Below are positions 4,905-34,598 of a DNA stretch of 39,689 nucleotides, piece after piece. Under the pieces are notes generated by a model. The model was not told the DNA's origin. It saw nothing but the letters and a program-made list of their open reading frames with translations, and searched no databases. Location of the stretch: IMG/VR virus record IMGVR_UViG_3300045988_132498, positions 1 through 39,689 of that record; one strand, given 5' to 3'. This DNA comes from a virus. A program made the translations under genes and the position numbers. Numbering within the stretch: the first letter of the stretch is position 1; each line of letters opens with the position of its first letter.

Positions 4905-5177
4905 TCACAGGTCGAAAAGAGGGGCGGTCCCTATGCCCTCGACGACGGCGGACCGGTGGGCAGCCAGGCAATCAGGACAGACGAGCGGGCCGGTGAGGCA
5001 CGCGCTCTCGACGTCCTCGCAGTGCTGGGTGAGAAAGCCCAGGTTTTCGAGTTTGCCGAGCCCGTTACAGAGTCGCCAGACCGGGTAATACATGCCATCT
5101 GGGTGCTGATGGGGCTTGTCTTCCTCGACGTCGGCGAGGTGGCGGCGAATCCGCCCCGGCAGGAGGATGCGAGTCAC
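4905..5177 (-). CDS. Hypothetical Cys-rich protein (90 aa)
   Basis: GTG 5177 overlaps the methyltransferase stop (GTGA). Cysteine-rich (CNGL...HCEDVESAC...VCPDC). Confidence 0.55.
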   Translation of the reverse strand: MTRILLPGRIRRHLADVEEDKPHQHPDGMYYPVWRLCNGLGKLENLGFLTQHCEDVESACLTGPLVCPDCLAAHRSAVVEGIGTAPLFDL

Positions 5178-5858
5178 GCCACCTCACCGCCCCACAGGTC
5201 CAGCACCGGCTCGGACAGCCGGGTCGCGATGGTCTCGCAGTAGCGCTCCTCCAGCTCGACGCCGATAGACCGCCGCCCTAGATTCCGGGCAGCGAGGAGC
5301 GTAGCCCCCGACCCCGCGAACGGGTCTGCCACGACGCCATCGGGGCAGCGCTCGATGAGCCTCTCCATGAGCCCGATCGGCTTCGGCGTCGGATGCCCGG
5401 CGCGCTGCACCTCCAGGCTGCGACACTCGCGGGTGGTGATGACCGACCTCTGGGGGGGGGGCGGAGGCCTTAAAGCCTTCGCCTAGGACATAGATTTCCT
5501 CGTCCATGGTCATGAAAGCGCCCCGCACTGGGCCGGGCGCCATGCCCTGCTTATCCCAGATGAGACGATGCCTCACGCCCGCCGGGCGGGGCGCTTTCCA
5601 GGAGCCGAAGCAGATTGCGGGGCGGGAGCCCCACATGGTGAGGATCGTGTCTCTGCTCTCGACGCTGCTGTCCCCCGCAATGTCCGGCTGCCGCTGTGGG
5701 ATCGCGACACCATGCCGGTAGGAGGTCGCGATGCCCGTCCACCGCACACCGTAGGGCGGATCAGTCACGAGGACGTCCGCTGTCAGCCACTCGGTGATCT
5801 CGCGGCAGTCACCGTGGTAGAGGGTGACCTGGTCATCCTCGTAGTAGAGGGCGGTCAC
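5174..5858 (-). pseudogene. N6/N4 DNA methyltransferase (DPPY then FxGxG order) interrupted by a 1-nt frameshift in a homopolymer
   Basis: GTG 5858 with GGAGGAGGAG SD. The N-terminal frame carries LVTDPPYG. The C-terminal frame carries HPTPKP and DPFAGSGAT. The frames meet at the G10 run (5452-5461). Removing one G gives a continuous 227-aa ORF (685-1 = 684 nt). Confidence 0.8.
5452..5461. repeat. G10 (C10 on coding strand) homopolymer at the methyltransferase frameshift point
   Basis: Counted directly: t + 9 g at 5451-5460, plus g at 5461. Confidence 0.95.
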
Positions 5859-6388
5859 GACTCCTCCTCCTGCCAGAGGCCGCGCTCGGCAGCCAGCGCC
5901 GCACACACGGCCTCGACGGTGAGCGCGCGGAAACGGTGGGGGGCGATCCCCCCGTCGGGGTCGTAGGAGTCCGTGGAGCATGCGGCTAGGTCACCGAGGT
6001 ATGTGATGAAACGGCCTATCCGCACGCTGGGGGGCATCCCCAGATCGCGACTGCGGAGACTGAGGTATCCCTCGCGCCGGGCGCTCTCCAGGTACCCATC
6101 AGGGTCTCGGTCTCGGAGGGCGGCGAGGCAGTGTGCGGCGACCTGGAGGGCGCTCTTCGTCACCTGGCCGACCGTGTATGGGGTGAGAGCCCCGGTGGAT
6201 GCCCGGTGGGCGGCCTCGTGCCAGCCGTAGCAGAGGTTGGAGACTTCCTTGGTGAGCCTGGCGAGCATGAGCCCGTCGGCCTCGGGGTACATCTCCCGCC
6301 GCTTCTGTCCTGCGGCCCGGACCCGCACGGCCCGCTTGAGCATGGCCTCGAAATCGTGGCGGCGCTGGGCCATGGTCAGGGCGGTCAT
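5855..6388 (-). CDS. Hypothetical protein (177 aa)
   Basis: ATG 6388 overlaps the upstream stop (ATGA). Its own stop overlaps the methyltransferase GTG. Confidence 0.6.
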   Translation of the reverse strand: MTALTMAQRRHDFEAMLKRAVRVRAAGQKRREMYPEADGLMLARLTKEVSNLCYGWHEAAHRASTGALTPYTVGQVTKSALQVAAHCLAALRDRDPDGYLESARREGYLSLRSRDLGMPPSVRIGRFITYLGDLAACSTDSYDPDGGIAPHRFRALTVEAVCAALAAERGLWQEEES

Positions 6389-7738: not shown

Positions 7739-7966
7739 TTAGGCGGCTTCTGCCTGGGTGATGATCTGGCTGGCAGTGGTTCCGAGGGCGGCGGCGATCC
7801 GGCTGATCTCGTCGAGCTGTAGGCCGCGGCCGGTTCGGAGTCTGCGCTGGAGGGTGGAGCGGGGGATGTCCGCGTCTCGGCTGAGCTGGAGGAGGCTGGT
7901 GCCTGTTGTCTCCATCTGGTGGGTGATCGCCCGGATGATGGGGGGCGGCTCGTTTCTGTGGTCCAT
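7739..7966 (-). CDS. Cro-like XRE-family HTH regulator (75 aa), first gene of early operon
   Basis: ATG 7966 lies 7 nt after a TACTGT -10 with no SD (leaderless). HTH segment TSLLQLSRDADIPRSTLQRRL...ISRIAAALG. Divergent from the repressor gene. Confidence 0.7.
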   Translation of the reverse strand: MDHRNEPPPIIRAITHQMETTGTSLLQLSRDADIPRSTLQRRLRTGRGLQLDEISRIAAALGTTASQIITQAEAA

Positions 7967-7973
7967 GTGGGCA

Positions 7974-8003
7974 ACAGTAGGTGCCCACTTGGGCACCTGG
8001 CAA
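7974..8003 (-). promoter_or_regulatory. Early promoter TTGCCA-18-TACTGT with 20-bp perfect palindromic operator
   Basis: Minus strand has TTGCCA (8003-7998) and TACTGT (7979-7974). The spacer holds AGGTGCCCA-CT-TGGGCACCT (7979-7998), with 9-bp perfect arms. Confidence 0.65.
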
Positions 8004-8030
8004 GATGCTGGGAGATCGCTCAGAAAACCG

Positions 8031-8060
8031 TTACCATTCCGTCACCTTGTGGTCCAATAT
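8031..8060 (+). promoter_or_regulatory. Tentative repressor-maintenance promoter TTACCA-18-CAATAT
   Basis: Hexamers at 8031-8036 and 8055-8060. The ATG at 8075 would leave a very short leader. A weak match, so tentative. Confidence 0.3.
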
Positions 8061-8074
8061 GGCACACTCAAAGC

Positions 8075-8356
8075 ATGGGAACTCAAGCAACCAACCCCGA
8101 GGCCGGTCTCAACGCCGCGGCCGCCGCCGTCCTGCGCGAGCTCAGGGAGCAGCAGCACATCACCATGCGCTCCCTATCCACCTCCACAGGCATCCCCCTG
8201 CGCACGCTCACACGCCTCCTACAGGCGGACAGGTCCATCACCTTCGACCCCCTGTGCGCGCTCGCTGACGCCCTCGGAGTCAGCGTCTCCACCATCGTCT
8301 CGCTGGCCGAGGAGCGCCTGCGGGAGGAGCAGCGTGTCCCCCAATTCTCCTGCTGA
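8075..8356 (+). CDS. CI-like XRE-family HTH repressor (93 aa, no peptidase domain)
   Basis: ITMRSLSTSTGIPLRTLTRLLQADR...LCALADALGVSVSTI is an XRE-type HTH. It is divergent from the Cro-like gene, lies in the integrase-proximal position, and is one of very few plus-strand genes. Confidence 0.75.
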   Translation: MGTQATNPEAGLNAAAAAVLRELREQQHITMRSLSTSTGIPLRTLTRLLQADRSITFDPLCALADALGVSVSTIVSLAEERLREEQRVPQFSC

Positions 8357-9030: not shown

Positions 9031-10281
9031 CTAGGGGGTTGGGGTGGAGGCGAGGCCGAGGCGGGGAGCGACGGCCTCGAGAGCCGACCTGGCCTGCTCG
9101 AGGTCAGCGTGTTGGTATCCCATGGAGGTCGTGATCGCGGTGTGGCCCATAATTGCTATGACGACGGTGGCGGGGACCCCGGCGGCCATGAGGAGCGTCG
9201 CCGTCGAGTGGCGGGCCTCATGCACGAGATAGTAGCCGCCGCCGTCCTTGTGGACGCCAGCCACGTCCTGGAGGGCGCGCCACGCCAGCCGGTCGTCTTT
9301 TTTCGACCACGGGCCGCCGTCAGGGCGGGGCCACACGAGCCCATAGGGCGAGGTCGGGCACTGGTCGCGCCAGGCGCTCAGGGCCGCCGCCATCCACGGC
9401 ACCAGCGGCAGGACACGGGAGCCCGCCGCGGTTTTGACCGGCCCCCAGTAGTAGCCGTCCATCAGGTGCTCATAGACCACGCCGTCGGTGCCGGTGACGT
9501 CCTCGGCGGCGGTCATCTCGACGAGCTGTCGGTCTACGGTGAGGGTACCGGCGTCGAGGTCGACACGGTCCCAGGTGAGTCCCAGGCACTCCCCCTGCCT
9601 CATACCCTGGAGAAGGGCGGCGACCCACCGGCTGGCGTCCTGCTCGGTGGCGAGGCGGCGGGACCGGTGGGCGGGGGCGCTCATGGCGTCGGGCAGGGGC
9701 GGCCAGGTGTCTTTCTCGGTGGCGGCCTTGAGGAGGGTAGCGGCGTCGGCGGCGGGGATGGCCTGCCGCTTGGAGGCGGCCGCCTTGGGCTTGGGTGCGA
9801 GCATGACGGAGTCGGGGATGCGGTGACCCTCGACGATGGCGGCCCTGAGGGCGCGGTGGAGGATCAGCCGGACGTAGCGGATCGACGTTGTTGACCGCCC
9901 GGCCTGCCTCATGCCGGCTTCCATCTTGCGTAGGTCGGTGACGGTGAGGTCGGTGAGGCGGCGGTGCCCGATGGTGGGTACGACCCACTTGCCGAGGAGG
10001 GCGATGTCATTCGAGTAGGTGCGGGGGCGGGCGGTCCGCTTGTAGTCGACGGCCCAGGTGTCGAGCCAGGACTTGAGGGTGGTGCGCGGGCTGACGGCGG
10101 TGGACTGCTGCTCGGCGAGGACCTCCCGGCGGATGGCGCGCAGGGCGCGCTTGGCCTCCGCCTCGGTGGCTCGCGCTCGGGTGATCCGTCGGCGGCCACC
10201 GGATGGCGTGTAGCCAGCCTCGACGCAAGCGACCCATTTGCCGTCGCGCCGCTGGTAGACGGTGCCCTCACCGTAGGCCAT
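9031..10281 (-). CDS. int: Tyrosine integrase (416 aa)
   Basis: N-terminal arm-binding-like GTVYQRRDGKWVACV. C-terminal HEARHSTATLLMAAG...IMGHTAITTSMGYQH contains the H-x-x-R ... H ... Y catalytic pattern of tyrosine recombinases. Adjacent to attP. Confidence 0.9.
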   Translation of the reverse strand: MAYGEGTVYQRRDGKWVACVEAGYTPSGGRRRITRARATEAEAKRALRAIRREVLAEQQSTAVSPRTTLKSWLDTWAVDYKRTARPRTYSNDIALLGKWVVPTIGHRRLTDLTVTDLRKMEAGMRQAGRSTTSIRYVRLILHRALRAAIVEGHRIPDSVMLAPKPKAAASKRQAIPAADAATLLKAATEKDTWPPLPDAMSAPAHRSRRLATEQDASRWVAALLQGMRQGECLGLTWDRVDLDAGTLTVDRQLVEMTAAEDVTGTDGVVYEHLMDGYYWGPVKTAAGSRVLPLVPWMAAALSAWRDQCPTSPYGLVWPRPDGGPWSKKDDRLAWRALQDVAGVHKDGGGYYLVHEARHSTATLLMAAGVPATVVIAIMGHTAITTSMGYQHADLEQARSALEAVAPRLGLASTPTP

Positions 10282-10326: not shown

Positions 10327-10397
10327 CGCGTCCCAGGATAGCATAAGAGGAGCCAAGTAGGTACCGCACATTTCGCGGCGATTCCGCGGTTTCCCGG

Positions 10398-10444
10398 TCG
10401 GGCTGGCGGGATTTGAACCCGCGGCCCCCTGCTCCCAAAGCAGG
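10398..10444 (-). other. attP core: 3' half of a tRNA-Pro(UGG)-like sequence
   Basis: Minus strand reads CCTGC-TTTGGGA-GCAGG (anticodon arm, TGG), GGGCC, GCGGG-TTCAAAT-CCCGC (T-arm), CAGCCCG-A (acceptor 3' strand plus discriminator). Upstream sequence cannot form a D-arm or a matching acceptor 5' strand, so this is a fragment. Confidence 0.6.
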
Positions 10445-10505
10445 TGCCATTCCAGGTGATACCCCCCGACAGCACTCACCAAACCGCCGACCAGCCGCCC
10501 CGAAA

Positions 10506-30488: not shown

Positions 30489-30600
30489 AAGCACCCCCTT
30501 GGGAAAAAATGGTGGGGAGAGATGCCGCTATACCCACGGGGGGGCGAGAGTGGGGGACGGGAGGGTATATCCCCCCTGTCCCTCATTTCTGGCGGCTACT

Positions 30601-30921
30601 CTACCATGTTTCTGTGTCTGTGGTCTCTTGAATTTTGATTGGCCGGTCACGTTTCCGTTTCGGCGGCTTTGCTTTTCTGCCGTTTCCTTTGCGTTGGTTG
30701 CAGCGGCGGCAAATGATTTGAATGTTTTCTAGCGTGTCATTTCCGCCTCGACTGTGAGGCACGATGTGGTCGGCCTCGGGTGAGGATGGTAGTAGGCCAG
30801 CGTCCCAGGTGAGGTGGACGTGGCAGATGGGACAGTGCTCTAGTCCTGCTGCTCGCGCTGAGCGTTTGGCTGCTGCTGCGTTGTGGAGCCAGCGTGTGGT
30901 GCCGGTGCGTGAGGTGGTCAC
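30601..30921 (-). CDS. HNH endonuclease
   Basis: CPICH...ADHIVPHSRGGNDTLENIQIICRRCNQRKG. GTG 30921 has a GAGGAGG SD. ATG 30948 is an alternative start without an SD. Confidence 0.85.
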   Translation of the reverse strand: MTTSRTGTTRWLHNAAAAKRSARAAGLEHCPICHVHLTWDAGLLPSSPEADHIVPHSRGGNDTLENIQIICRRCNQRKGNGRKAKPPKRKRDRPIKIQETTDTETW

Positions 30922-31170
30922 GTGTCCTCCTCGCGCGCGTGTGCGCACGCGGCCCGCGTCACGCTGCTGTGCGTGAGCGGGCCGCGTCGCTTCTCCCCAT
31001 TCCCTTCTCCCCAGAAGGGTAGGCAGTAGTGGAGCCCAGCGACCGTGTGGGTCGGCTGGGCTCTGACACTTTGCCTATGTTCGTATGATGCGCGTTTCAG
31101 TAGCGGCGCGCAAGTGGTAGTCACGCCTGGCGTGTTGCGGTTTGGTCACGGGGTGGGGTGTGTCTGTTGT

Positions 31171-31280
31171 GGGGTGCCCCTATTGTCGACCCCCTCCCCC
31201 GCCTATCGATACCCCTGCCCCTCTGCTTGACGGGGTGCCCCTGCTGTGAGAGGGGGTGGGTGTCCATGATGGGTGCCCCC
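31171..31280. repeat. Three GGGTGCCCC boxes in noncoding divergent region
   Basis: GGGGTGCCCCTATTGT (31171), GGGGTGCCCCTGCTGT (31232) and GGGTGCCCCCTTACTAT (31271). Confidence 0.7.
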
Positions 31281-31341
31281 TTACTATAGCCCCACCCCCT
31301 TTAGTGTGGCCTACCCCACTGTTTGTGTACACCCCCTGGGC

Positions 31342-31371
31342 TTGCGTTCATTCGGTATGCCGACATACACT
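31342..31371 (+). promoter_or_regulatory. Promoter P1 TTGCGT-18-TACACT with palindrome GTATG-CCGA-CATAC
   Basis: Hexamers at 31342-31347 and 31366-31371. The palindrome at 31355-31368 overlaps the -10. About 65 bp (-35 to ATG) is duplicated at P2. Confidence 0.6.
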
Positions 31372-31404
31372 AGAGCCATCGGAACAGACAGAAAGGAACC
31401 GGTC

Positions 31405-31734
31405 ATGGAAATCACCACCAGCCACTACAGCGAGGACGACCTCCCCGGCACCCGGTACTCCATGATCGACGACGGCGAGGAGGTCGGCTACCTCATCGCC
31501 CACACCACTGGCCTCATCCTCAACGTCGAGGTCGACGAGGACCGCCAGGGCGAGGGCATCGCCCGCGCGCTCTTCGAGTACGCCGACGACGCCCAGGGCC
31601 TCTACCACATCCCCTCCTGGGGCCGCACCGAGGACGGCGACCGCTTCGCTAACGCCATGGGTGGTGACACCATGGATGACGAGCAGGCCGCCGCCATCGT
31701 CGGCATGGACCTCAGCATCTACGACGTCGACTGA
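31405..31734 (+). CDS. Acidic 109-aa protein with mini-GNAT-like motif
   Basis: AGAAAGGAACC SD. LILNVEVDEDRQGEGIARALFEYA resembles GNAT motif A (R/Q-x-x-G-x-G/A). No lysine residues. Confidence 0.65.
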   Translation: MEITTSHYSEDDLPGTRYSMIDDGEEVGYLIAHTTGLILNVEVDEDRQGEGIARALFEYADDAQGLYHIPSWGRTEDGDRFANAMGGDTMDDEQAAAIVGMDLSIYDVD

Positions 31735-31765
31735 CATCACCCCCACCCCCGAAAGGAACCCCGAG

Positions 31766-32017
31766 ATGACCCCCGTCACTGTTGCAGCGAGCTACCTCAT
31801 CAGGCACTTCGGCAACGTCGTCACCATCCAGGACAACCCTGGTGGGCGCGGCCAGGCCGTGGAGGTCCATTGGGCTGGCGGCCTCGCCACGATCCACCCC
31901 ATCCCGGGCGCGATGTACCGCGTGAACTGCGCTCTCGCCTACGAGGACACCACCCTCCTCAATCTCCCTGGCGTGGTGGAGCGCATGATCGCCACCGCCG
32001 TTGCCAACGCCAACTGA
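31766..32017 (+). CDS. Hypothetical protein (83 aa)
   Basis: GAAAGGAACC SD 5 nt upstream of the ATG. Confidence 0.65.
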   Translation: MTPVTVAASYLIRHFGNVVTIQDNPGGRGQAVEVHWAGGLATIHPIPGAMYRVNCALAYEDTTLLNLPGVVERMIATAVANAN

Positions 32018-32026
32018 CCACCCCAT

Positions 32027-32051
32027 TGCCCGCCCCGAAATGGGGCGGGCA
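32027..32051 (+). terminator. Hairpin TGCCCGCCCC-GAAAT-GGGGCGGGCA (attenuator/terminator-like)
   Basis: 10-bp perfect stem between two plus-strand genes. No U-tract. Confidence 0.45.
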
Positions 32052-32070
32052 CCCCAGAAAGGAAACCCCC

Positions 32071-32406
32071 ATGGCCCGCTACAACTGGAACCCTGCCACC
32101 TCCTCCGACTACCCCGGCACTGTCCTGGTCGCTACCGCTGACGACGGTGCGGCGATCCACCTCCACCTGGATACCTTCGACGACGAGGTCGAGGCGGCCT
32201 TCGTGATCGAGACGCACCCCGGTCGGTTTGTGACGACGGAGGAGTCGTCCTGCTGGCCGGCGGTGGAGCGCTACGTCCCGCGCGAGGAGTGGACGCCTGA
32301 GATGTACGGCAGCCTAGACGTCCCGTCTATGCGCCACCCTGACCCGGCGGTGACGGAGGCGATCGACGCCTATCGCCGGGCGATGCTGGACGCCCTGGAC
32401 GACTGA
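32071..32406 (+). CDS. Acidic hypothetical protein (111 aa)
   Basis: AGAAAGGAAAC SD. Rich in D/E. Confidence 0.65.
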   Translation: MARYNWNPATSSDYPGTVLVATADDGAAIHLHLDTFDDEVEAAFVIETHPGRFVTTEESSCWPAVERYVPREEWTPEMYGSLDVPSMRHPDPAVTEAIDAYRRAMLDALDD

Positions 32407-32461
32407 CTCAACCCCTGCCCGGCACCGCGATGGGGCCGGGCCTGACCTGGAAGGAGTAGCG

Positions 32462-32683
32462 ATGAGCGCTGAGACTGAGCGTCCGAGCTTGTTGGAGTTG
32501 GGGGTCCTGTGTGAGGAGGTGAGACATCTATGTGAGGTCCTCGATGAGACTGAGGATCGACGTCGCGCTGTGGCGGTGGCTGCGGTGCGTGGTGGCGCGT
32601 CGAAAACAGCGGTGGCTGCTGCGGCGGGGGTGACTCGGCAGACGTTGGACCGCTGGCTGGGTGTGTGGCAGCGCACATCTTGA
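32462..32683 (+). CDS. Small HTH protein (73 aa), candidate island regulator
   Basis: GGAAGGAG SD. GASKTAVAAAAGVTRQTLDRWL is an HTH-like segment. The gene ends 5 nt before the -35 of P2. Confidence 0.6.
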   Translation: MSAETERPSLLELGVLCEEVRHLCEVLDETEDRRRAVAVAAVRGGASKTAVAAAAGVTRQTLDRWLGVWQRTS

Positions 32684-32687
32684 TGGC

Positions 32688-32717
32688 TTGACCCCATTGG
32701 GTATGCGGGCATACACT
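32688..32717 (+). promoter_or_regulatory. Promoter P2 TTGACC-18-TACACT with palindrome GTATGC-GG-GCATAC
   Basis: Hexamers at 32688-32693 and 32712-32717. The palindrome at 32701-32714 overlaps the -10. Paralogous to P1. Confidence 0.6.
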
Positions 32718-32750
32718 TAAGTCATCGGGAACGAAGAAAGGAACCCCAAA

Positions 32751-33005
32751 ATGAGCACCATCCGCAAGGCCTTCAACACCATCAAGAACACCGACTACGC
32801 CGCCGCCGGGCAGATCAAGGTCACCGACCTCGTGGATGGCGCGATCGCCGTCGGCCCGCGCGGCCAGTACGTCCAGGAGAGCGACAGCCTCGGCCTCATC
32901 ATCAACGGCCACGTTGCCGCCGGGCCGGACGACGACCCCACCGACGCTGACCTCCGCGCCGCCGTCGCCGCCCTCCTCGGCTACGACCCCGAGACCACTG
33001 TCTGA
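32751..33005 (+). CDS. Acidic hypothetical protein (84 aa)
   Basis: AGAAAGGAACC SD. Confidence 0.65.
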   Translation: MSTIRKAFNTIKNTDYAAAGQIKVTDLVDGAIAVGPRGQYVQESDSLGLIINGHVAAGPDDDPTDADLRAAVAALLGYDPETTV

Positions 33006-33016
33006 CTCGCCTACCC

Positions 33017-33058
33017 GCCCGGATGGTCGCAGCGGGGGTTCGACTCCCCCGCCGGGCA
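33017..33058 (+). ncRNA. tRNA-like minihelix (acceptor stem plus T-arm only)
   Basis: GCCCGG (33017-33022) pairs with CCGGGC (33052-33057). GGGGG/CCCCC encloses TTCGACT (33039-33045), a canonical T-loop. A33058 sits at the discriminator position. No D or anticodon arm. Confidence 0.5.
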
Positions 33059-33093
33059 CGACCCACCCAAATACCCCACGGAAGGAACCAACC

Positions 33094-33300
33094 ATGGCCG
33101 CTAATGCCACCCCCAAGCAGGTCGCTTACGCCCTCCACCTCCTCGACGAAGCGGGCTACGACACCCGTTACATGAACTCCTCGTTCGCCGGCCTCGGAGC
33201 CACGATGAGGCAGCGCTCCGGCAGCGTGGAGCACTGGCTGGAGTCAATGAGCCGCCCCGAGATCAGCAGACTGATCGACCGACTGAAGGAAGGAGACTGA
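33094..33300 (+). CDS. Hypothetical protein (68 aa)
   Basis: GGAAGGAACC SD. ATPKQVAYALHLLDEAGY...EISRLIDRLK. Confidence 0.6.
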   Translation: MAANATPKQVAYALHLLDEAGYDTRYMNSSFAGLGATMRQRSGSVEHWLESMSRPEISRLIDRLKEGD

Positions 33301-33330
33301 CCCGCCCACCGCACCCCAAGGAGCCCCACA

Positions 33331-33561
33331 ATGAATTTGTACCCCACCCGCAACCTAGCCATCAACCACGAGATCAGGGACGCCCTGGCACCGGGCCTGG
33401 AAGACCTCGACGGTACGGTCGATGACTACTACGACATCGACGCCATCGCAGATGAGACCATCACCACGTTCCTCGCCCCGAGCGGGGTGGTCACCTACTG
33501 CATCTCGGCCGACATCTACCCGGCCCTGTTCTGGGAGATCGTCGAGCGGCACGCCCGCTGA
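33331..33561 (+). CDS. Acidic hypothetical protein (76 aa)
   Basis: AAGGAG SD. Last gene of the plus-strand island. Confidence 0.6.
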   Translation: MNLYPTRNLAINHEIRDALAPGLEDLDGTVDDYYDIDAIADETITTFLAPSGVVTYCISADIYPALFWEIVERHAR

Positions 33562-33572
33562 CCGAACACGGG

Positions 33573-33601
33573 AGGCGCCCCACCAAACCGGTGGGGCGCC
33601 T
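33573..33601. terminator. Convergent (bidirectional) terminator hairpin
   Basis: AGGCGCCCCACC (33573-33584) pairs with GGTGGGGCGCCT (33590-33601): 12-bp perfect stem. Lies between the plus-strand island and the end of the minus-strand early operon. Confidence 0.7.
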
Positions 33602-33621
33602 TCGTCATGCCACGACGTCGC

Positions 33622-33837
33622 TCACTTCATGTCTCCGATGGCGTCTCGGGATTCGGTGAGCATGCCGATCACCTGGCCTATGGCCTCGGTGGCGTCGGCT
33701 GCTGGTAGGCCGGCTGCGATGCCTGCGATGGCGGTGGCGTGCCCCATCATGGTGATGGTGAGGCTTCTCTTCACGGCTGCCTTGACGGTTTCCTCAGCGA
33801 CGGCGGCTAGCGCCGTCTGGGTCATCTCTGGTGTCAT
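33622..33837 (-). CDS. Hypothetical protein (71 aa)
   Basis: ATG 33837 with ATGA coupling. Last early gene. Confidence 0.55.
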   Translation of the reverse strand: MTPEMTQTALAAVAEETVKAAVKRSLTITMMGHATAIAGIAAGLPAADATEAIGQVIGMLTESRDAIGDMK

Positions 33838-34598
33838 GCTGCCTTGTCCTTCCTGCGTGCTGCGGCGGCGAGGAGGTCGCCGACGTGGTATCTGCCTTCG
33901 TGGTCGGTGAGGTGGCCCCTGTGTTTCCAGAGTCGGATGGTGGCCGCCCTCGTGGGGTATCCGGCTTGGGTGAGGAGCCTCGCGCCTTCGTCGGGGGTGA
34001 CTAGCCAGTCGGCGGCCGCCTCCAGGTGGGACTGGAGGAGCGGCTGGAGCTCCCACTGGGTGTCACAGGCCGGGCACCTGGCCCACGAGGACCCCGGTGC
34101 GGCGTAGATGGGCTGGTCGCACACTCCCCGGTCCCCCAGGTCGGTGAGGCACCGCCCGTAGAACCTGGCGTCCTCGGGGACGTCCACGAGGGCCGTGAGC
34201 GCCCGGATGGCGGCCAGGACCTCGGGGATGAGGGTGGCTAGCTCGGGGCGGCCGGGGTGGAGTGACGCCTCATAGAGTTGGACGCCGACGGCTCGCCAGG
34301 TCTGCGGGGTGCTGCAACTGGTGAGGTCTGCGATCCACTTCGCCCACTTCAGGAGGGTCCTCTCGTGTGCGCTGGCGGCCTGGATGATGCCGAGCCGCAC
34401 CGGGGGGCGACTGCACGGCGTCACGCTGGCCCCGCCGCCTTGGCCGCGCTTGAGCCCGGCCTTGGCGGCGTCCAGGGCGTCCATGAGCGCCACGATGCCG
34501 TGGGCGGCCTCGTCGAGTCGACGGCAGGCCGTCGCGCTCACGTACCGGTCACCCCGCAGCGGCTCCCCCGTGACGGGGCAGGAGCGGGCCTCAGTCAC
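33834..34598 (-). CDS. Zn-ribbon plus C-terminal HTH protein (254 aa), candidate transcription regulator
   Basis: GTG 34598. CDQPIY...CPACD, and a C-terminal excisionase-like segment VTPDEGARLLTQAGYPTRAATIRLWKHRGHL. Confidence 0.55.
   Translation of the reverse strand: MTEARSCPVTGEPLRGDRYVSATACRRLDEAAHGIVALMDALDAAKAGLKRGQGGGASVTPCSRPPVRLGIIQAASAHERTLLKWAKWIADLTSCSTPQTWRAVGVQLYEASLHPGRPELATLIPEVLAAIRALTALVDVPEDARFYGRCLTDLGDRGVCDQPIYAAPGSSWARCPACDTQWELQPLLQSHLEAAADWLVTPDEGARLLTQAGYPTRAATIRLWKHRGHLTDHEGRYHVGDLLAAAARRKDKAA

Follow-up and report, generated by a model that had tools for sequence, protein, structure and literature searches.

We analysed a 39,689-nt viral DNA (IMG/VR record IMGVR_UViG_3300045988_132498; "the window" below means this whole stretch), which has a G+C content of 66.5% and carries nearly all of its genes on the minus strand. 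Between positions 31,342 and 33,601 lies an island of seven small plus-strand genes, g1 to g7, all of which had been called in the initial annotation of the sequence and are confirmed here (Table 1). The genes stand behind two copies of a promoter-like cassette, P1 upstream of g1 and P2 between g4 and g5, and the block closes on a terminator-like hairpin that it has in common with the convergent minus-strand operon. This report concerns the organization of the island, the small helix-turn-helix (HTH) protein encoded by g4, which may regulate it, and a transfer RNA (tRNA)-like minihelix that lies between g5 and g6.

Table 1. Island features and their surroundings, in window coordinates (SD, Shine-Dalgarno sequence; counts refer to the 23 islands compared in the text)
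Feature	Position	Strand	Description
Cro-like gene	7739-7996	minus	half of the phage's own switch
CI-like gene	8076-8356	plus	half of the phage's own switch
Tyrosine integrase	9031-10281	minus	
tRNA-Pro(TGG)	10396-10468	minus	adjoins the integrase; sole tRNA by ARAGORN
Putative cos ends	~30546-30551		between the HNH stop codon and the terS start
HNH endonuclease	30601-30948	minus	Pfam HNH, E 4e-12
Divergent control region	30949-31341	.	between HNH (leftward) and P1 (rightward)
Control-region hairpins	30949-30985, 31002-31019, 31032-31063		compensatory changes across relatives in two of the three
Control-region invariant block	31063-31101		
GGGGTGCCCC-type repeats	31170-31290		
Cassette P1	31339-31404	plus	-35, palindrome, -10, leader, SD
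P1 -35	31342-31347	plus	TTGCGT; 18-nt spacer
P1 operator-like palindrome	31355-31368	plus	GTATG-CCGA-CATAC
P1 -10	31366-31371	plus	TACACT
P1 conserved leader		plus	AGAGCCATCGGAAC
P1 SD	31391-31400	plus	GAAAGGAACC
g1	31405-31734	plus	109 aa, net charge -21, no lysine; 4/23 islands
g2	31766-32017	plus	83 aa, near neutral, no lysine; 9/23 islands
g3	32071-32406	plus	111 aa, net charge -15, no lysine; 18/23 islands
g4	32462-32683	plus	73 aa, near neutral, HTH; 23/23 islands
Cassette P2	32685-32750	plus	-35, palindrome, -10, leader, SD
P2 -35	32688-32693	plus	TTGACC; 18-nt spacer
P2 operator-like palindrome	32701-32714	plus	GTATG-CGGG-CATAC
P2 -10	32712-32717	plus	TACACT
P2 leader		plus	TAAGTCATCGGGAAC
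P2 SD	32736-32745	plus	GAAAGGAACC
g5	32751-33005	plus	84 aa, net charge -6; 8/23 islands
tRNA-like minihelix	33017-33058	plus	42 nt, acceptor-plus-T-arm
g6	33094-33300	plus	68 aa, near neutral; 3/23 islands
g7	33331-33561	plus	76 aa, net charge -10, no lysine; 5/23 islands
Terminator-like hairpin	33571-33603	bidirectional	conserved in relatives
m72		minus	72 aa
m254	33834-34598	minus	254 aa, HTH-bearing

A repeated cassette and a mosaic of genes

P1 and P2 are copies of one unit, in which the palindrome overlaps the first 3 nt of the -10 in both cases. The initial annotation had described the two promoters, both palindromes and a duplicated cassette of about 65 bp, and every one of these is present: P1 and P2 share a 44-nt ungapped repeat with 77% identity, which with a gap extends to the SD and the ATG. 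Its description of both promoters as near-consensus holds for P2, a plus-strand site that is one of two promoter-like sites returned by a consensus scan of 30500-34200 (0.3 expected), and fails for P1, whose -35 matches TTGACA at three of six positions. The string formed by the palindrome and the -10, GGTATGCNNNCATACACT, has exactly two plus-strand copies in the 39.7-kb window, at P1 and P2; the sole further match, at three mismatches, is the reverse-strand reading of the P2 palindrome, and the chance expectation at up to three mismatches is 0.42. The CI/Cro operator, TGCCCACTTGGGCA at 7982 between the divergent HTH pair, is unrelated to the island palindrome, as had been claimed.

A search for the cassette in other phage genomes, which the initial annotation had proposed, found one conserved and reused unit, with a backbone that recurs in four other lineages (see below). 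An nhmmer profile built from P1 and P2 recovered one to three cassettes in every related phage covering the region, 37 in all (a separate tabulation took in 45 distinct copies). TTG at the -35, GTATG, CATACACT and AG-CATCGG are kept in all 37, which share the form GTATG-N4-CATACACT, and the variable positions are the N4 centre and the bases on either side of GTATG. In IMG/VR the pattern occurs in 31 contigs, all belonging to this phage group; it has no match in 185,579 GTDB species genomes, and literature searches returned no description of the cassette or of the minihelix. We know of no sigma-A promoter element at the position of the left half-site. Because GTATG is invariant there and is mirrored by the right half-site, it is likely to be a protein-binding site, and this mirrored invariance is the main feature that argues for a protein-binding operator.

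The cassettes belong to a mosaic island set in a conserved backbone. We compared 23 islands, those of the window and of the 22 related IMG/VR phages covering the region. In the 22 relatives, the flanking gene m254 is 83-94% identical, as is HNH in all but three contigs, and between these near-identical backbones the island content varies from g4 in every island to g6 in three (Table 1), with a 60-aa membrane protein in 14. Comparison with the nearest relatives places breakpoints at 31398/31751, where exactly g1 is gone, between two GAAAGGAACC Shine-Dalgarno boxes; comparison with the closest relatives places others at 33082/33299, where exactly g6 is gone as a single-gene indel. Both pairs of breakpoints are cassette or SD junctions, and GAAAGGAAC has three copies in the island against one in the other 37 kb. 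The cargo genes may therefore be interchangeable single-gene modules that are swapped at cassette and SD junctions. The earlier view of the block as accessory, or moron-like, rather than core is borne out by this variation between near-identical backbones and by homologues at moron positions in prophages of Actinomyces howellii and Schaalia.

The proteins encoded by the island are unusually poor in lysine, which makes up six of their 604 residues (1.0%), where the backbone has 3.6% (binomial P about 7e-5), and the g1 family shares this property, 87 of 120 members having none. The term ORFans, used in the initial annotation, does not suit g1 (138 homologues), the g3 family (70 cluster representatives) or g4 (115 homologues). 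For g2, g3, g5, g6 and g7, sequence searches of Pfam, PHROGs, NCBIfam, PADLOC and the PDB gave nothing significant, and the cargo matched no known defence or anti-defence family in PADLOC, NCBIfam, Pfam or PHROGs; an anti-defence role for it is neither supported nor excluded.

The g1 protein contains the sequence RQGEGIARAL, which fits GNAT motif A (Q/R-x-x-G-x-G/A). The initial annotation had called g1 lysine-free and GNAT motif-A-like, and at the level of the fold this stands. In an AlphaFold2 (AF2) model with a predicted local distance difference test (pLDDT) score of 91.7, the protein starts directly with beta-strands, without N-terminal helices, and all of its top Foldseek matches in the PDB are GNATs (E 7e-4, with modest TM scores of 0.52-0.56). 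Its profile scores lie below the curated cut-offs of Acetyltransf_7 (24.9 against 27 bits), Acetyltransf_1 (18.4 against 20.7) and rimI (19.1 against 86.4). From the model, g1 is best described as a minimal GNAT-fold protein. A GNAT fold, a small DNA-binding protein that is a candidate autoregulator and a tRNA-like element in the same block recall a GNAT-toxin/HTH-antitoxin module in which g4 would be the antidote to the toxin g1, or some other toxin-antidote set such as the initial annotation had raised. We regard this as very improbable, given that g1 is present in four of the 23 islands and g4 in all of them, that g2 and g3 lie between the two, and that g1 is a minimal GNAT of 109 aa beginning with beta-strands. 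Furthermore, g4 has no ribbon-helix-helix (RHH) or DUF1778 match, and the minihelix is found at many loci that lack g1.

The linked HTH protein as candidate regulator

The initial annotation had named the HTH gene as the best candidate for the regulator, and comparison strengthens the case. It is the only island gene found in all 23 islands, and in the nine that have a cassette downstream of it, that cassette directly follows its stop codon (9/9). The g4 protein comprises an N-terminal helix and a C-terminal HTH with the recognition helix GVTRQTLDRWLG; within the group this helix, GVTRQTLD(K/R)WLG, is invariant. Its match to Pfam HTH_23 (E 5.9e-5, 23.2 bits) falls under the 24.6-bit cut-off, and several members of its family carry a precomputed PF13384 match. 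Within Pfam, HTH_23-type models were the only ones matched, with none for RHH or DUF1778, and GenBank phage records contain no g4 homologue.

The codon usage of g4 is peculiar. Across the 23 islands its third codon positions have a C fraction of 0.11-0.14, G of 0.52-0.62 and T of 0.24-0.26; in the window the C fraction is 0.14 for g4 against 0.54-0.77 for g1, g2, g5, g6 and g7, and in the other island gene families it is 0.53-0.77. Three other groups show the bias to a lesser degree in their HTH genes, and A. howellii does not show it. It could reflect rare-codon throttling of a regulator or a foreign origin. An antisense open reading frame (ORF) at 32314-32712 was considered as its cause and rejected, as the translation of that ORF is of low complexity and not protein-like, while g4 has HTH homology and homologues in fused form.

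The backbone of the cassette, a -10 of TACACT or TATACT followed by (T/A)(A/G)AG(T/C)CATCG, is common to four other Actinomycetaceae phage or prophage lineages. The A. howellii prophage has three cassettes with the palindrome TATATGACGTCATATA and an HTH with the helix GVSPQTVYGLL; the L095 group of 43-kb oral phages has four, with TGTACA-type repeats and the helix GVSRMSLDDWL; the Schaalia prophage has one, with the palindrome ACAGTGCACTGT and the helix GLTRRTVYKRL; and L112 has one, with TATGA-TCG-TCATA and a helix identical to that of g4. Five groups combine an HTH with a palindrome; their helices are of four kinds and their palindromes of four or five, with no variation inside a group. In the A. 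howellii prophage and in the L095 group, too, a cassette begins shortly behind the end of a g4-like HTH gene, giving adjacency in three groups, and g7-like genes also stand behind cassettes in these two lineages. The A. howellii island (LR134350.1; L076, 5380-8040) and the Schaalia sp. island (CP065521.1; L077, 5900-7800) both lie at prophage ends beside lysis genes. The three cassettes of the former are of identical type, and that island has a 5'-terminal leader hairpin (ATCGGG/CCCGAT); the latter contains a g3-HTH fusion followed by a ROS/MucR-domain protein.

These fusions connect g3 with the putative regulator. The AF2 model of g3 has a pLDDT of 90.9 and no match in the PDB, and its matches in BFVD are confined to its own family. 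Among the 70 cluster representatives recovered by a profile search, six proteins of 175-250 aa (P0264, P0267, P0273, P0284, P0301 and P0313) join an N-terminal g3 domain to a C-terminal g4-like HTH, and hhalign aligns the C-terminal HTH of the fusions with the g4 family at a probability of 89.5% (E 2e-6). One fusion is the neighbour of a g1 homologue in the Schaalia prophage. Such Rosetta-stone fusions make g3 a probable partner of g4 or a sensor acting on it. The domain would be small, new and without a known fold.

Taking these observations together, we think it fairly probable that the block is a moron-type accessory island under a repressor that the island itself encodes and that regulates its own synthesis. 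Host RNA polymerase would start at P1 and P2, two copies of one portable cassette in which 18 nt separate a sigma-A-type -35 from the -10 TACACT, followed by a leader starting (A/T)(A/G)AG(C/T)CATCGG and a strong SD. The 14-bp GTATG-N4-CATAC, with half-site centres 9 bp apart, would serve as the operator for a g4 dimer, and the bound dimer would occlude the -10. P1 would transcribe g1 to g4, g4 thereby limiting its own synthesis through negative autoregulation, and P2, 4 nt past the g4 stop codon, would drive g5 to g7 at the same g4-dependent set-point, with g3 modulating g4 as a partner or sensor. The whole island would be transcribed against the rest of the genome. We infer from sequence comparison that g4 is the repressor of both promoters.

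Several points weigh against this interpretation. The right half-site overlaps the -10, and its conservation is hence partly that of the promoter. In 14 of the 23 islands there is a single cassette, and duplication is thus optional. The proposed mechanism does not account for the conserved start of the leader: a 5' hairpin is found in long-leader relatives and not in the window, and as a cause of the conservation it was rejected, being modest in those relatives and amounting to a dG of -2 to -3 (z about 0) in the window's cassettes. Operator and recognition helix are both constant within the window's group, which leaves no within-group covariation, and the argument between groups rests on five lineages. 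L112, with the same helix as g4, has its half-sites one base further apart (TATG-N5-CATA), and the A. howellii operator has a TATG-N4-CATA core despite a different helix. Finally, g4 scores under the Pfam cut-off, other DNA-binding proteins of the phage (CI, Cro or Xis-like) might be the binders, and a regulator sitting in an 18-nt spacer could be an activator.

Some of these points would also fit an arrangement in which the palindrome is not the operator of g4: another phage or host regulator would bind there, or GTATG would be part of an unusual promoter, and g4 would act elsewhere, for example near cos. The sub-threshold score of g4, its weak PHROG matches to HTHs of small terminases and transposases, the constancy of operator and helix and the altered spacing in L112 are all compatible with this. 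We consider it unlikely, because g4-like HTHs lie beside cassette islands in five groups and m254 does not, the regulator gene adjoins the cassette in three groups, the genome has no further copy of the palindrome, and its symmetric invariant bases are hard to explain by promoter function alone. As the regulator, m254 itself is disfavoured, as no homologue of this HTH-bearing neighbour lies beside the cassette islands of other groups.

Alternatively, g4 might be an activator working in an over-long spacer, with positive feedback on its own gene. An operator between the -35 and the -10 in an 18-nt spacer is the geometry of MerR-type activators, and the -35 of P1 is weak. However, g4 is not a MerR-family protein, P2 already has a good -35 and -10, and overlap with the -10 usually occludes polymerase; activation thus seems improbable to us, more so than binding by another regulator.

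Genome position and the tRNA-like minihelix

Along the minus strand, a RecT-like gene, SSB, m254 and m72 precede the island. A 456-nt noncoding stretch follows it, then the HNH endonuclease, the small and large terminases and the portal, then tail genes, endolysin and holin, the tRNA-Pro and the tyrosine integrase, and lastly the CI-like (plus-strand) and Cro-like (minus-strand) pair and the replication genes. This gene order shows the window to be a complete but circularly permuted genome, that of a temperate cos phage (siphovirus) of about 39.7 kb from oral Actinomyces. A terL search returned 42 related IMG/VR contigs, from human samples, at least 10 of which start 326-365 nt upstream of terL, and a complete 39,074-nt relative both starts and ends at window positions 30546-30551. 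Because the contig starts cluster there and the complete contig begins and ends at that point, we infer that the cos ends lie between HNH and terS.

Actinomyces johnsonii, A. stomatis, A. oricola and Actinomyces sp. ZJ308 contain sequences that match the 3' 45 nt of the phage tRNA-Pro exactly, and this part of the tRNA gene is likely the attP/attB core. The assignment of the host to oral Actinomyces rests on this match and on the homologues of g1 in the A. howellii and Schaalia prophages. Against GenBank phages, DNA similarity is limited to short matches at the minihelix and one 80%-identical structural segment in Propionibacterium phages, and there is no annotated relative. The phage also carries what looks like an N4/N6-type DNA methyltransferase split between two overlapping minus-strand frames at 5174-5981, with a DPPY motif in the ORF at 5184-5981 and an FAGSG motif in the ORF at 5174-5410; the split may stem from a frameshift or a sequencing error, or mark a pseudogene.

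The placement of the island bears on when it would be expressed. P1 lies about 0.8 kb from the predicted right genome end, and the island spans 0.8-3 kb from that end. Together with host-type promoters, strongly acidic products (g1, g3, g5 and g7) and the scarcity of lysine, this would suit an immediate-early module at the first-entering genome end, transcribed without delay by host RNA polymerase and delivering small acidic proteins for host takeover or counter-defence, with g4 as a Cro-like shut-off. We see this as possible rather than probable. It differs from an accessory island under its own repressor in timing and purpose and shares the same mechanism, and the confidence placed in the two overlaps. 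Which end enters first is, however, assumed by analogy with lambda; the A. howellii and Schaalia islands stand beside lysis genes and the att end, not the cos end; and the cargo lacks a match to known anti-defence or defence families. The prophage islands beside lysis genes favour a moron, and the end-proximal position leaves room for early expression.

The 455-bp region upstream of P1 had been described as noncoding, which it is, and it is not empty, since it holds three hairpins and an invariant block (Table 1). An alignment of 22 relatives shows invariant blocks and indels that are not multiples of three, and RNAalifold predicts 39 pairs, seven with compensatory double changes. The HNH-terminase late operon probably has its promoter and leader in the interval 30949-31341, pointing away from P1. 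At the other end of the island, the strong convergent terminator proposed earlier is present, its stem measured as 14 bp; the plus-strand form has a dG of -32.3 (z -5.7) and the minus-strand form one of -32.1 (z -4.1). Within the island, GC-rich hairpins without T-tracts follow g2 (32027-32051; 10-bp stem, dG -23.8, z -4.0) and g3 (32417-32441). The two are about 71% alike and may be attenuators or RNA-stability elements in the P1 transcript.

The minihelix reads GCCCGGATGGT-CGCAGC-GGGGGTTCGACTCCCCC-GCCGGGC-A. Folded in isolation, it has a 7-bp T-stem on which an acceptor-like stem of 5 bp is stacked, a 10-nt bulge, the T-loop TTCGACT (canonical TTCRAYT) and the discriminator A; its ends presumably resemble those of a tRNA-Leu without the D, anticodon and variable arms. 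The initial annotation had seen a tRNA-like element here. Such an element exists as an acceptor-plus-T-arm minihelix and is not a tRNA: a tRNA or tmRNA gene was rejected, as there is no D or anticodon arm, ARAGORN is negative for 33017-33058, and no Rfam family, tRNA and tmRNA included, matches.

Copies of the minihelix are present in 34 IMG/VR contigs as well as in phages of Gordonia and in genomes of Nocardia and Microbacterium. A genome may have as many as three, and without exception they sit on the coding strand in an intergenic position, immediately behind a stop codon. They include those of L095 (at 6150, 7081 and 8452), L078, L044, L045 and L107-L110, and in Microbacterium sp. 3J1 the element lies in a phage-like replication module. 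At two of three Microbacterium loci, the ATG of the next gene is one nucleotide past the discriminator base. Among 19 distinct copies, in an alignment that was fitted to the model, six pairs changed on both sides and 99% of cells were paired, which none of 500 shuffles reached; this support lies mostly in the T-stem, the acceptor stem having one double change. An att-site remnant is an unlikely origin, since both acceptor strands are present, up to three copies per genome lie inside operons and the T-stem covaries. Our working hypothesis is that the minihelix may be an RNase P/Z processing signal or a stabilising one.

A wider scheme can be drawn from these elements, which we offer as speculation and think somewhat doubtful. 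Actinomycetaceae phages may share a portable platform with a constant -10 and leader, an exchangeable palindrome and a linked small HTH, in some cases joined to a g3 domain, that would read it and so define immunity-like specificity groups, cargo shuffled at SD and cassette junctions, and minihelix punctuation at which cleavage by RNase P and/or RNase Z would part the cistrons, with leaderless downstream mRNA in some hosts.

Comparison with known systems

Oral Actinomyces phages are almost uncharacterised. What is most novel here is the family of cassettes with swapped specificities, together with the fusion of g3 to an HTH and the minihelix between genes. If the compact, self-limiting unit of promoter, operator and repressor, which recurs with differing specificity, is real, it could mark accessory islands (for lysogenic conversion or counter-defence) in actinophage genomes and supply high-GC Gram-positive bacteria with orthogonal parts for expression.

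The GNAT-toxin type II toxin-antitoxin systems TacAT, AtaRT and KacAT, like the island, have a GNAT-fold protein and a small DNA-binding protein in one operon. Unlike in those systems, g1 and g4 are not adjacent and do not co-occur, g1 has 109 aa against about 160-180 aa, and RHH and DUF1778 domains are lacking.

In organelle transcripts, tRNAs that punctuate the message and tRNA-like "t-elements" are RNase P and RNase Z processing signals, and minihelices made of the acceptor and T arms are minimal substrates of RNase P and of the CCA-adding enzyme. Like organelle tRNA punctuation, the minihelix has an acceptor-like stem, a covarying T-stem, a T-loop and a discriminator, and it stands between cistrons on the coding strand. 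It differs from organelle t-elements in having neither a D nor an anticodon arm, in its location in operons of phages of Actinobacteria and in being known here from sequence alone. Should it be processed, bacterial viruses would have their own version of the tRNA punctuation of organelles.

Among phage elements built from short repeats, the stoperators of Cluster A phages are a further comparison. The start-associated sequence (SAS) of Cluster K mycobacteriophages is a 13-bp sequence, GGGATAGGAGCCC, at translation starts, and the extended SAS (ESAS) has 17-bp inverted repeats (PMC3203893). Like these, the island motifs are short, include the ribosome-binding site, lie upstream of a subset of genes in one orientation and are conserved across related actinophages, and some SAS copies likewise have an inverted repeat and a variable spacer (PMC3203893). 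The island differs in its sequences (GAAAGGAACC and GTATG-N4-CATAC), in having the repeat inside a -35/-10 promoter, in its confinement to one 2.3-kb block and in its linked regulator, and the likeness is one of analogy alone.

With lambdoid immunity, where one repressor acts on related operators at two promoters (OL/PL and OR/PR), the island shares the placement of the same palindrome over two promoters and a candidate repressor that would be made from one of them. Here, though, the promoters are tandem and the genes co-directional, there is no Cro-type antagonist and no control of lytic genes, and the phage has a separate CI/Cro switch at 7739-8356.

The closest parallel may be with morons, which work by Juhala and by Hendrix and their colleagues in 2000 reportedly described as independent promoter-gene-terminator units, as with lambda bor and in HK97 and HK022. 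Like them, the island has, as far as its sequence indicates, its own host-type promoters and terminator; it opposes the surrounding operons, varies in content among collinear relatives and sits at an operon boundary near cos or beside lysis genes. Unlike them, it is multi-gene, with one to three copies of one cassette, what appear to be a dedicated operator and a linked regulator, and exchange at SD and cassette junctions. Such regions are already known; this one is well organised and overturns no current ideas.

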